Shown: piece after piece, positions 462-4,790 of the stretch
How the letters are laid out: each line of letters starts with the position of its first letter
Numbering within the stretch: the stretch's first letter is position 1
Source: Deferribacterales bacterium
Lineage (GTDB): Bacteria > Chrysiogenota > Deferribacteres > Deferribacterales > Geovibrionaceae
NCBI GenBank assembly: GCA_050253075.1
Contig: JBFWJS010000003.1
Location: 277,458-341,457, forward strand
Direction: 5' to 3'
Length of the DNA: 64,000 bases
Made by a program: the position numbers and the translations under genes
Notes under the pieces: model-generated
Told to the model about the DNA's origin: nothing
What the model saw: only the letters and a program-made list of their open reading frames with translations
The model's database searches: none

Positions 462-551
462 GTAATTAAAGTAAAAAATCACATCTCCATTAAAAATTCA
501 TAATTGATTATAACGATGGTTGCGTTACAATCAAAATATGGAGGTGTGAAA

Positions 552-2816
552 ATGAAAAGAATAATCAGTACGCTGATCTTGTGCAGCTTTCTCATATACG
601 GCTGCGGAGGCGGAGGCGGAAGCAGCAGTGGAGCGGTAGACGACTCAGGCGGAAGCTCGGTCAGCTCCGGCGTTGCAGTCGACCCATATCTTAAAGATGC
701 GATATTCTGTGTGGATATCGATCAAAACGGCATCTGCGGTGCAGATGAGCCCGAATCTACCCCTAGTGACGAAAACGGTGTATTCACTTTCGATAACTAC
801 GAAGTTCAGGAAGGGGACATCATCCTGATGAAATCAGCAGGCACACACAACGGCGTGCCTTTCCAATACGCTAAAATGATCGCAGTGTATCAGGGCGGAG
901 ACCTCATAGTTTCCCCGCTGACAACACTCCTTGCGAAGAGCCTCGACGCTGCTCAGATCGTAGCTCTTTTAGACCCGATTGGCACATACGGACTGACAGC
1001 AGACCTCGTCAGCATGGACCCTGTAGAGATAGTGGAGTCTATCGGTACAGAAGTTCTGACAGATGCGAACCTCGCAGCCATCAGAGCATCCATCGGCGCA
1101 TACATGCTGCTCCGTATGATAGATGCTAATCCTGCCCTTGCAGACCTTTCAGGCGACGACCTTGTGAACAATGACGACGTCAAAGACCTCGCAAGCAACA
1201 TGATGGCTATCGTTGCAGAGGCTATCACTGTCGAAAGGATAGAAGACTTCCAGACTATGGTGGATAACTCAGGCGTGGACGGACTCCCCGCTGTGGACAT
1301 CATGGACATCATCTACACAGCAGTGACCATATGCGACTATGCACTTGAGCTCGGTGAAGCCGAATTTGAGGCAAACGGAAACGTGAACGGCGTTATCAAC
1401 GCTATGAACTCATTCAAAAATACTCAGATGACAGCCCTTATCGATGAGGTAGGACCTAATCAGTATGTATACAGACTTAAAAGAGAACACGGCATAAACA
1501 TTCCTAACGGCGTGCCTTTCAGCACTGTGGACTTCAATGCATGTTCTCAGGGACTCCACATCGGCGGAAACGGCAGACCAATGTGCTACGGCGACGATGA
1601 AGAAACTGAAGCAACAGATGAGGAGATAGCCGAGGCTGTTGCCGATGCTCCTGAGATCAAGTTCGACTTTGACGAAGCATCATACACACCGCCTGCGGGC
1701 GCAGGTGATGCCAGAGCATCCAGCAGGATAGGCTTTGGTACAAATGCTGTCGGTGCATGCTATGTTTACGGCATCAGATACAACGCAAGCGAATTTGTCC
1801 CTAATGCGGACTATCTCAGATGTGTGGTTTCTGAAACTGCCGAAGCAGGCTACCTCGAAGGTATCAGCGAAGGCGCAGTTTACCTTAAGCTCACAAATTC
1901 TGATAATCAAAATCACTTTGCTAAGCTCACATACTCAAACGGCACAGCCACAGCAGACATCTGCTACAACCAGAATATGGCAGCCGACTATGCACCTGTA
2001 AAACAGAATGCACGTGTAACTGTGACATACTCCGAAGACGGCTATGTCGTAAACAGCACGATGCTTCTGGACAATAACTGGAACGGCACTCCTGAAGGGC
2101 TTGTGGAAGAAGGTCTTAAGATCGATGCTTCTGCCAGCGTTTCCGAGAGCGAAGGCGAGATGTATAGCTTCATCATCCACTTCCTTAACGAGCAGGGGGC
2201 AAACTGTGCGGATCTTCCTTCCGGTTCTTCCGCAACAGCCACAGACGACCAGTGCTTCCTCAGATACGAAGGAAACATATACTACGGACTCAGTGAAAGC
2301 GACGTCAGCTTCAGCAAGTATGACGGTCTCTTTGTTGAAAAAGTGTATGACGGAGGCCCCGGCGCATTCCTTGCGGGCGGATCAGTCTCTGCCGTTATCA
2401 GCGGCGGAAGTGCTTACTCCAGATATGCAGGCCTGACAACAGATACAGTATCATTTGACCTTGGTACACCTGAAAGCGAAGCCTGGACAGCCAGCAGTCT
2501 GCTTATCGATGCTCTGAGTTCCCTCGGGGCTGTTTTCGGCGAAATTCCGCTGCCTGAGAGAACAGTTACAATACCGGCTATCGAAGATGCTTGGGACTGC
2601 TCGGCAGACGCTTTTGTCACAGTCGATACAGACAGTATCGCAGGTATGGCTGATTGTGTAAGTGACAGCTCGCTTATAAACTTTGTCGGTGCCGCTGACC
2701 TTACAACATGTTCCGAAGGTACAGACAGCCCGACATTCCAGCAGCTTATGGATAACTACAGATGTAATGATGAAGATCCGCTTACGCTGAATGCCAACAT
2801 GTGCGCACCGGATTAA
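552..2816 (+). CDS. Large acidic lipoprotein of unknown function
   Basis: GGAGG RBS before ATG 552; lipobox IYGC followed by a Gly/Ser linker; VDPYL...CVDIDQNGICG...EP N-terminal motif seen in secreted proteins; strongly D/E-rich. Confidence 0.75.
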   Translation: MKRIISTLILCSFLIYGCGGGGGSSSGAVDDSGGSSVSSGVAVDPYLKDAIFCVDIDQNGICGADEPESTPSDENGVFTFDNYEVQEGDIILMKSAGTHNGVPFQYAKMIAVYQGGDLIVSPLTTLLAKSLDAAQIVALLDPIGTYGLTADLVSMDPVEIVESIGTEVLTDANLAAIRASIGAYMLLRMIDANPALADLSGDDLVNNDDVKDLASNMMAIVAEAITVERIEDFQTMVDNSGVDGLPAVDIMDIIYTAVTICDYALELGEAEFEANGNVNGVINAMNSFKNTQMTALIDEVGPNQYVYRLKREHGINIPNGVPFSTVDFNACSQGLHIGGNGRPMCYGDDEETEATDEEIAEAVADAPEIKFDFDEASYTPPAGAGDARASSRIGFGTNAVGACYVYGIRYNASEFVPNADYLRCVVSETAEAGYLEGISEGAVYLKLTNSDNQNHFAKLTYSNGTATADICYNQNMAADYAPVKQNARVTVTYSEDGYVVNSTMLLDNNWNGTPEGLVEEGLKIDASASVSESEGEMYSFIIHFLNEQGANCADLPSGSSATATDDQCFLRYEGNIYYGLSESDVSFSKYDGLFVEKVYDGGPGAFLAGGSVSAVISGGSAYSRYAGLTTDTVSFDLGTPESEAWTASSLLIDALSSLGAVFGEIPLPERTVTIPAIEDAWDCSADAFVTVDTDSIAGMADCVSDSSLINFVGAADLTTCSEGTDSPTFQQLMDNYRCNDEDPLTLNANMCAPD

Positions 2817-3099: not shown

Positions 3100-4242
3100 T
3101 TATAGCGGGCTTTTAGTTTTAAATTCTGTAAAGTGCAGAAATACACTCAGGGCAGAGCCTTCGTGCGTGTATTCCGCATGACCTTTGAAATTATTTTCCA
3201 AAAGTTTTTTGATGAACATTAATTCCATTTCAGCATCGTCTTTGACTCTGGTATAGCTGATCTTCACAGTCAGCAGTCCGTCGTTTATCATATGCTCAAA
3301 GGTGATCTTATTGTTCTCTTTCCCTTCGATTATACCGAGGGTGATGAGGTGGCGGATGAGGAACTGATAAAGCTCTTTGTCGCCGCTGATGACCACATTC
3401 CCTTTGTTACATCCGTGGAAGCATTTTTTCGTACCCGTACCGCATCGAATCTTAAAATTTTCTGTGATGTCGATGAACGTCTCGGTGATGATGTCGCCTA
3501 GTGCATGACAGTTCAGGCTGACGTGTGTTTCGGTCTTTTTCAGGATGTCGTTCAGTCTCTCTATGTTGTTAAACATGGTCTCAGAGATGTTTATGATATC
3601 CTCGTCTGAATCGTTAGAGTAGAAGACCGCCATCTCGTCGATGGATTCAGACAGCCTCGATATCTCGTTGAAAACCTGCCTTGTGGCAAAGTTCATATAG
3701 TATTTTGTAAGGCTGCTGTCTTCGAACTGTTCCTTTATGTCCTGAGTGAAGAGCGAGATGCTGTTCAGAGGCTGTCTCCATGTGTGCATGGATTCAGATA
3801 TGATTTGTCTGACTATCTCGTTGTCGTCGCTCTTGTTCTCCAGCTTTCTCTGCTTATACTGGGCTGTGGTATCGTATATCTTCACTGTGTATATTTCGTC
3901 ATCTTCTATAACTTGATAACACGCCGTGAGGAACATCCAGTAAGAGCTGTCCTCGGAATATAAGGGGAACTCATAGGTGAAGCATCTGGTAAGGTCGCCA
4001 TGCAGCTCTTTCAGACCCTTTATGATGTTATGGATGATCAGCTCGTCTTCGTGCAGATACTCCGACATAAGGTCTCTGAGCGAGATATTCTTGCCCTCTG
4101 TAAGTTTTGTCTGTAATATCTCTAGTAGAGATTTGAAAGAGTTATTCACCCAAAGTATATCTAACTCTTTATTTAACAGAACAATCTTTTCCGGGCTGTT
4201 TGTGTAAGTCCTAATAATATGTTCTTGAACGTTGATTTGCAT
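3100..4242 (-). CDS. PAS-like/HisKA protein with degenerate ATPase domain (pseudokinase-like)
   Basis: N-terminal PAS-like segment; H-box HTWRQPLN; no recognisable N/G1/G2 boxes; Cys-rich insert. Confidence 0.65.
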   Translation of the reverse strand: MQINVQEHIIRTYTNSPEKIVLLNKELDILWVNNSFKSLLEILQTKLTEGKNISLRDLMSEYLHEDELIIHNIIKGLKELHGDLTRCFTYEFPLYSEDSSYWMFLTACYQVIEDDEIYTVKIYDTTAQYKQRKLENKSDDNEIVRQIISESMHTWRQPLNSISLFTQDIKEQFEDSSLTKYYMNFATRQVFNEISRLSESIDEMAVFYSNDSDEDIINISETMFNNIERLNDILKKTETHVSLNCHALGDIITETFIDITENFKIRCGTGTKKCFHGCNKGNVVISGDKELYQFLIRHLITLGIIEGKENNKITFEHMINDGLLTVKISYTRVKDDAEMELMFIKKLLENNFKGHAEYTHEGSALSVFLHFTEFKTKSPL

Positions 4243-4503
4243 GCGGAGTATAATATCTGAATTAAATTTTTTTTCAATCAGAAATTACTTAACATTTGAT
4301 AAAAAAGACAAAATAAGTATAGTAATATAAATGGCTGTTAATATTAACTTTTGCGGACTATCTGAAGATAAAAAGTATCATATAAAATTTTGATAGTTAT
4401 CAATGCTTTGAGCATTGATGCGGGTGTGATGCGAGAAAATTAACGTATAATAAACCTAACAAAAAATTGGTAAGTATATTTAACTACCCGGCGATGGAGT
4501 GTA

Positions 4504-4767
4504 ATGGCAGAATTCACGGTAAAAATCGTCGATCAGCGAGCCACCTCTGGTATACTCTGAGGTGATTGTCCTCTTTTAATTAAGAGGCACCTCATAGGTC
4601 TATGGGGTATAGACTCGGTCGACTTTGACCTACAGACTGCGACCTTTCATGTTGTGTCCCGTGTGACACATGCAGGTGCTCTGCGCCTTATTATCAGCAG
4701 AGGGTTAAATGCCTTATCTAAAATACATTTCAAAGATTTCAAAGTTTATTCCATAGAGCCGAAATAA
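4504..4767 (+). CDS. Putative selenoprotein, MerP/HMA-like heavy-metal-binding domain (UxxC), 87 aa
   Basis: Hand translation MAEFTVKIVDQRATSGIL-U(TGA 4558-4560)-GDCPLLIKRHLIGLWGIDSVDFDLQTATFHV...IEPK*; GGAG at 4496-4499; hairpin at the TGA; terminator directly after TAA. Confidence 0.7.
4558..4594 (+). promoter_or_regulatory. SECIS-like stem-loop
   Basis: TGAGGTG-ATTGT-CCTCTT-TTAATT-AAGAGG-CACCTCA. Confidence 0.55.
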
Positions 4768-4790
4768 AAAAAGGCTCCGAAGAGCCTTTT
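4766..4790. terminator. Bidirectional terminator
   Basis: AAAAGGCTC-CGAA-GAGCCTTTT between convergent genes. Confidence 0.85.

Follow-up and report, generated by a model that had tools for sequence, protein, structure and literature searches.

Among the described systems close to the gene reported here is the UxxU metal-binding (seleno)protein family NF041115, listed as 'putative mercuric reductase' in the available text of PMC13188914. Its members are likewise small, stand-alone and HMA-like with selenocysteine (Sec) in the metal motif, and NF041115 was the best NCBIfam match of our protein (E 6.6e-4). However, it has UxxU in a 74-position model, as opposed to a single Sec (UxxC) in 87 residues here, and the match scored 19.8 bits where the cut-off demands 95. 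Because the ordinary Cys HMA domains of the same genome score 43-59 bits on NF041115, the 19.8-bit match is generic. A cation-transporting ATPase E1-E2 selenoprotein (TIGR01525) in the same source shares UxxC with our protein (PMC13188914, available text). It is a membrane P1B ATPase, whereas our protein is a free single domain without an adjoining ATPase. The UxxC of the ATPase presumably lies in its metal-binding domain. CopZ, Atx1/HAH1, MerP, NmerA and other HMA domains (PF00403) have the same fold with the ligand pair at the start of helix 1, and a VxGM-like start is found in the relatives of our protein. Compared with CopZ and MerP, GM and the first ligand stand about six residues further apart in those relatives (GMGxxxxxLUMGCP), and in the copy studied here the GM is lost. 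Our protein also has a longer loop ahead of the first ligand, a longer helix 2, Sec in place of Cys and, unlike MerP, no signal peptide. The arsenite chaperone ArsD has three Cys residues and another fold and serves ArsA; as we understand it, ArsD is alike in proposed role only, as a small cytoplasmic As(III) binder in arsenic loci, and our protein did not match it in the Pfam or NCBIfam scans.

Of the 119 families tabulated in PMC13188914, in its available part, two are related to HMA, namely NF041115 (UxxU) and a P-type ATPase with UxxC, and neither fits our protein. No HMA or Deferribacter selenoprotein family appears in the available passages of PMC9312934, PMC12013277, PMC13326102, PMC1976440 and bioRxiv 10.1101/2022.07.06.499078. 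In the literature searched, an HMA-fold Sec family is apparently uncatalogued, though it may be mentioned elsewhere.

The window, the whole stretch of 64,000 nucleotides of Deferribacterales DNA that was analysed, contains an open reading frame of 87 codons from ATG 4504-4506 to TAA 4765-4767, in which TGA at codon 19 is followed by 68 sense codons. These coordinates and the read-through peptide match those given in a preliminary description, which had proposed a Sec-containing metal chaperone. The features of the locus are the following.

4390..4451, plus strand: possible promoter region (a weak lead) with an FNR/Crp-like box, an inverted repeat and TATAAT
4496..4499, plus strand: Shine-Dalgarno-like GGAG, from the sequence
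4504..4767, plus strand: predicted gene of a Sec-containing HMA-fold protein, 87 codons
4558..4560, plus strand: in-frame TGA, codon 19, inferred selenocysteine and first ligand of U-x-x-C-P, with TGA or Cys at the homologous codon in relatives
4558..4594, plus strand: competing hairpin starting at the UGA, not conserved
4567..4569, plus strand: Cys22, second ligand, without variation in the alignments
4589..4608, plus strand: likely SECIS with an 8-bp stem and a GGUC loop (4597-4600), 36 nt after the UGA
4769..4790, strand not assigned: terminator-like hairpin between the Sec gene and the convergent PepSY-TM gene

The GGAG lies 4 nt upstream of the ATG. The Sec gene stands alone, with a PAS-like gene diverging upstream and a run of PepSY_TM_like_2, DUF4920, glyoxalase and CorA/ZntB-like transporter genes (ZntB model 212 bits, below the 292 cut-off) converging from the opposite strand. 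The neighbours that had been regarded as metal-related (PepSY-TM, DUF4920 and ZntB) are indeed there, but their convergent orientation means that they form no operon with the Sec gene, and PepSY/DUF4920 are retained in two same-genus genomes without it. The terminator said to follow the stop directly was found as a stable hairpin (-12 kcal/mol, with none of 200 shuffles equally stable), but the terminator scan called it on the minus strand only, and the plus-strand tail has four T. Upstream, a perfect FNR/Crp-like box (TTGAT-N4-ATCAA, 4390-4403) overlaps a perfect 9-bp inverted repeat (4399-4419), and TATAAT is located at 4446-4451. The box centre lies ~61 nt before the start expected from TATAAT 4446, which we take to be a class I activator position. 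The box was not enriched, with three in the genome against 4.2 expected, and was absent upstream of the 16 relatives checked. Two proteins encoded nearby are of note: a 380-residue PAS-like protein whose C-terminal part is kinase-like and which has no strong family match (3100-4242, minus strand), conserved in all three congeners, and a 770-residue acidic lipoprotein-like reading frame with no Pfam match (504-2816, plus strand), of which related reading frames shift around the locus in congeners (G001).

The preliminary description had suggested looking for the Sec machinery in the genome. The genome, which is 99.9% complete, has the selA, selB, selC and selD expected for a bacterial selenoprotein: selA (524 bits), selB (293) and selD (339) each scored above cut-off, and tRNA-Sec is present. 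The selD gene itself has an in-frame TGA. Five other likely selenoprotein genes, with TGAs at C1:39357+, C1:671814-, C1:679566-, C1:660750- and C4:237506-, lie outside the window; besides SelD, we take them from their motifs to encode a HesB-like protein (GUGGP), two SelW-like proteins (CxxU) and an arsenate-reductase-like UxxC protein. No second copy of the Sec HMA gene was found in the genome.

A four-sequence profile searched against 68 genomes of the phylum matched in 15, eight with one TGA and seven without stops. The TGA genomes are the window's own, all four of Deferribacter and all three of a further genus (g11); the stop-free Cys forms come from all seven genomes of Seleniivibrio (g4). 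TGA and Cys share the same alignment column, with conservation on both flanks. A TGA-anchored pattern additionally gave seven metagenome stretches with six true members, four of them distinct, which were not counted for Sec versus Cys because the pattern required a TGA; L036 and L048 were chance matches to the pattern and were dropped. Homologs of both kinds, which the preliminary description had proposed to seek, were thus found, with TGA in seven genomes of relatives and in six contigs from metagenomes, and Cys in the seven Seleniivibrio genomes. A TGA unique to this allele with Cys in all close orthologs, which would have marked a nonsense pseudogene, was not what was found, since seven other genomes have TGA at the same codon. 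Seven of the eight TGA genomes have selA; the remaining one (G035, 87% complete) yielded no selA and no selB-family match at 1e-30, not even EF-Tu (1e-56 in the window's genome).

In databases, the TGA forms are shortened to 65 residues. Among 37 matches of a protein search, 34 start with MGCP and one with MGCS directly behind the Sec position, one has Trp there and one is an inner fragment; no full-length Cys form was among them. In 35 of the 37, the annotated start is thus the Met that immediately follows the TGA position, the pattern that gene callers produce from a selenoprotein. A Planctomycetes HMA protein (P0058), seen as a protein entry alone, also has its database start at MGCP and may be another shortened selenoprotein. 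The Sec gene was found in the three congeners neither by the profile nor at the syntenic site, plasmids and viral contigs gave no match, phmmer over 1.84 billion representatives retrieved only seven repeat-HMA proteins, and 333 genomes outside the phylum gave only two matches, both ordinary GMxCxxC domains. The seven Seleniivibrio genomes with Cys forms (L027-L033) all have selA, and their genes are convergent to the same ZntB-like gene. These Cys forms are a possible case of Sec-to-Cys conversion, the tree having left the order of Sec and Cys forms unsettled; such conversion is rare in bacteria according to the available text of PMC13188914.

Folding by minimum energy does give the stem-loop previously noted at the TGA (z -2.9), but this stem-loop is not conserved and was rejected as the SECIS, as 58% of its cells were paired and 113 of 500 shuffles reached as high. 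In the hairpin at 4589-4608, 97.7% of 88 cells were paired across 11 distinct TGA sequences (duplicates L020, L051 and L052 left out), a value reached by none of 500 shuffles, and slid controls gave 27-60%. Four of the eight stem pairs changed on both sides among the 11 sequences, which as kin are not independent, and four of the five double changes stem from the window's sequence alone. Seven or eight of the eight pairs are retained in all 11 TGA sequences, as opposed to 0-4 in the seven Cys genes, and equal pairing occurred in only 1-6% of synonymous encodings and in 0.6% of random genome 22-mers. With the first 12 nt removed, as the ribosome would cover them, this hairpin forms with a probability of 0.96. 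The bacterial SECIS consensus, as given in the available text of PMC13188914, has a loop of 3-9 nt with G in its two opening positions, a stem of 4-16 bp, a distance of 16-37 nt from the UGA and an MFE of -7.5 kcal/mol or below. The hairpin at 4589-4608 agrees with it by its GGUC loop, 8-bp stem, 36 nt and -8.0 kcal/mol, the 36 nt being close to the limit of 37 and, as a point against it, longer than the spacing of about 21-25 nt in the genome's five other likely selenoprotein genes. Taken by itself, a hairpin of SECIS type carries no weight, since a simple hairpin filter lets through 266 of the genome's read-through TGAs. From the comparison of sequences, the hairpin at 4589-4608, rather than the one at the TGA, is the likely SECIS. 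The ribosome would cover the UGA and melt the competing hairpin, after which the hairpin at 4589-4608 could recruit SelB-tRNA(Sec). The machinery, the Sec/Cys pairs, the conserved TGA and the covarying hairpin speak for the selenoprotein suspected earlier, and we are highly confident that codon 19 would be decoded as Sec.

AlphaFold, run on 17 sequences, predicted a beta-alpha-beta-beta-alpha-beta model for our protein with a pLDDT of 92.4, in which the CxxC-type pair precedes helix 1 of a ferredoxin-like HMA fold. All five Foldseek matches at E<=0.001 were HMA domains, and these ranked first in VIA-align (ATP7B domains 5-6, Z 9.0, rmsd 2.4, 72 residues), where unrelated ferredoxin-like folds reached Z 8.4. 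The HMA fold of the 87-residue protein is, on this model, nearly certain. The HMA character claimed from the sequence was thus recovered in the predicted structure but not in the Pfam scan, in which PF00403 gave 21 bits against a gathering cut-off of 24.8 (E 4.4e-4) and matched at E<=1 in 10 of the 17 aligned members. Moreover, no NCBIfam model (release June 2026; best E 6.6e-4 across 14 Sec members) and no Pfam model reached its cut-off for this protein, so that it is not MerP, CopZ or NF041115. The MerP/CopZ-like identity first assigned to it had to be abandoned, with GILUGDC in place of GMxCxxC and 14.1 bits against a CopZ cut-off of 91. The cytoplasmic location is supported by the model, which has no signal peptide; residues 2-10 would form strand 1, and no mer gene was found among the scanned neighbours.

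We compared seven neighbourhoods of Sec forms, using 34 neighbour scans that covered part of the reading frames.

Neighbourhood 1, the window's locus: no arsenic gene adjoining
Neighbourhood 2, G029 and G035: arrA, arrB, torD-like, the gene, PhnD-like binding protein, kinase, regulator; acr3 a few kb further in G035
Neighbourhood 3, G022: TtrA-like reductase, rhodanese, the gene, the same PhnD-like binding protein, kinase and regulator block
Neighbourhood 4, four Deferribacter: uvrB, the gene, penicillin-binding protein
Neighbourhood 5, L050/L052: arsC, acr3, the gene; L054: acr3, the gene
Neighbourhood 6, L049/L051: the gene divergent from ArsR and an ArsP_1 permease
Neighbourhood 7, L053: the gene behind a DUF362 gene

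Arsenic loci (arrABD, arsC-acr3 and ArsR-ArsP) thus account for three of the seven, and the other four, the window's copy among them, have no adjoining arsenic gene. In neighbourhood 2, arrA was the best match at 1161 bits, below the 1600 cut-off, and the ArsP_1 permease of neighbourhood 6 also resembles SO_0444 Cu/Zn exporters (below cut-off). No copper ATPase or pump and no mer family was found in the 34 scans of part of the reading frames. As described in the available passages, ArrX-type binding proteins are arsenate sensors (PMC5908839) and ArsP is an exporter of methylarsenite (PMC11653729). The Sec gene occurs in only three of 14 arrA genomes; the three congeners without it have arrA, and the window's genome has no acr3, arsB or arrA, its two ArsC-like genes and one ArsP-like gene lying away from the Sec gene.

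Two observations were made alongside. In L055:7392-15124 and L056:3080-10818, arrA, arrB and a torD-like gene are followed by genes of a PhnD-like binding protein, a kinase and a sigma-54 regulator, an arrXSR-like module in Deferribacterota, from which none is reported in the available text of PMC5908839; such a module also follows the TtrA-like operon in G022 and adjoins one in the window's genome. Furthermore, an acr3 match with one in-frame TGA (G058:C11:8704-9696) occurs in a genome without a selA match.

Metal or metalloid binding by the Sec19/Cys22 protein is probable. With arsenic genes in three of seven neighbourhoods and no copper pump or mer gene seen, we regard arsenite as the most probable ligand of the family; from the gene neighbourhoods of relatives, we judge the case for arsenic as the main ligand to be about evenly balanced. 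For the Cu or Hg of the preliminary description the fold speaks alone, and the relatives' neighbourhoods point more to arsenic. The arsenic loci, ArrX sensing and ArsP export led us to favour a Sec-Cys chelator of trivalent arsenic that would buffer it or feed efflux. As(III) or methylarsenite would be held as a chelate between the selenolate and the thiolate where helix 1 begins, and the bound arsenic would be buffered or, in relatives, handed to an efflux pump (Acr3, ArsP). Against arsenic stand the four neighbourhoods with no adjoining arsenic gene, the presence of the Sec gene in only three of 14 arrA genomes, the likeness of the ArsP_1 permease to Cu/Zn exporters and the missing acr3, arsB and arrA of the window's genome; in addition, As(III) prefers three ligands, and the family has only two conserved S/Se ligands. 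Taken as a whole, the reading of the gene as very likely encoding an 87-residue cytoplasmic selenoprotein of HMA fold, in which Sec19-x-x-Cys22 is likely to bind a soft metalloid, with trivalent arsenic as the most probable one, has in our estimate an even chance of being right.

The same selenoprotein could instead serve as a chaperone or buffer of Cu(I), Hg(II) or Zn(II) like CopZ, MerP or NmerA. Two ligands suit linear Cu(I) or Hg(II), CxxCP recalls MerP, all top structural matches were Cu-, Zn-, Cd-, Hg- or Au-binding HMA domains, an FNR-like box lies upstream, and within its own family-level lineage the gene is near a ZntB-like gene, here and in the seven Seleniivibrio genomes (48% identity). 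However, the ZntB gene is convergent and not co-transcribed, GMxCxxC is absent, a canonical CopZ-like protein and two further HMA domains are already encoded in the genome, and the neighbour scans lacked copper ATPase and mer families, so that we consider this role possible but unlikely. It is more doubtful still that the UxxC pair is redox-active or carries S or Se (persulfide, selenide, tellurite) for oxyanion respiration and holds no metal. Such a function would suit neighbours including a TtrA-like reductase, rhodanese, TauE/SafE exporters, FmdE and ArsC, and UxxC selenoproteins are for the most part regarded as redox proteins (PMC13188914, available text), but the predicted fold is HMA and not thioredoxin, and the gene contexts are mixed.

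The window's copy has diverged strongly. Its protein is 21-28% identical to the Sec relatives, its branch (length 6.16 against a median of 0.25) was too long to be placed by the tree, and its codon score lies at the 3rd percentile of real genes, with 13.5% of off-frame windows scoring as high. Nevertheless, when the genome was searched in six frames with a profile built from 13 relatives excluding our protein, the frame was the sole significant match (31.7 bits, E 2.6e-7; next E 1.2), and the Cys-clade profile found it at E 0.012. In 2000 neutral simulations run to 27% identity, the open frame never survived together with TGA, Cys and Pro, and a strain from another study has the TGA intact, its two differences in the frame (4551 and 4713) both being third-position synonymous. 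Because of the profile match, the simulations, the compensated hairpin and the intact TGA in the second strain, we read the copy as functional and fast-evolving. That the TGA is a true stop, in a decaying pseudogene or between an 18-residue leader and a protein of 65 residues that begins with the Met after it, is very improbable: the long branch, the low codon score, the failure to find the gene in three congeners, the ATG directly behind the TGA in relatives and the Trp at the Sec position in the database proteins P0035 and P0064 (known from protein entries alone) would fit it, but the first 18 codons make strand 1 of the predicted fold and align to uninterrupted Cys genes, the evidence just given for function opposes decay, and GGT instead of ATG follows the TGA here, so that a restart cannot explain this copy. 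The window's copy is a lone, fast-evolving orphan whose genome lacks acr3, arsB and arrA, so that it may have shifted to another ligand than that of the family.

Our broadest proposal, which we put forward tentatively and with more doubt than belief, is an undescribed family of Sec arsenite chaperones or sensors on the HMA fold, which in anaerobes would serve Acr3/ArsP efflux and the respiratory reduction of arsenate, with an unusually distant SECIS and turned to Cys in Seleniivibrio. The finding would add a family to the bacterial selenoproteome, the members of which are shortened by annotation pipelines to hypothetical proteins of 65 residues without the key ligand, and the hairpin at 36 nt from the UGA offers a test of the reach of SelB. 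If the arsenic link is true, the natural Sec and Cys versions would provide a small soluble protein for the direct comparison of Sec and Cys in As(III) binding, and arsenate respirers would gain a chaperone with a fold familiar from copper and mercury proteins.
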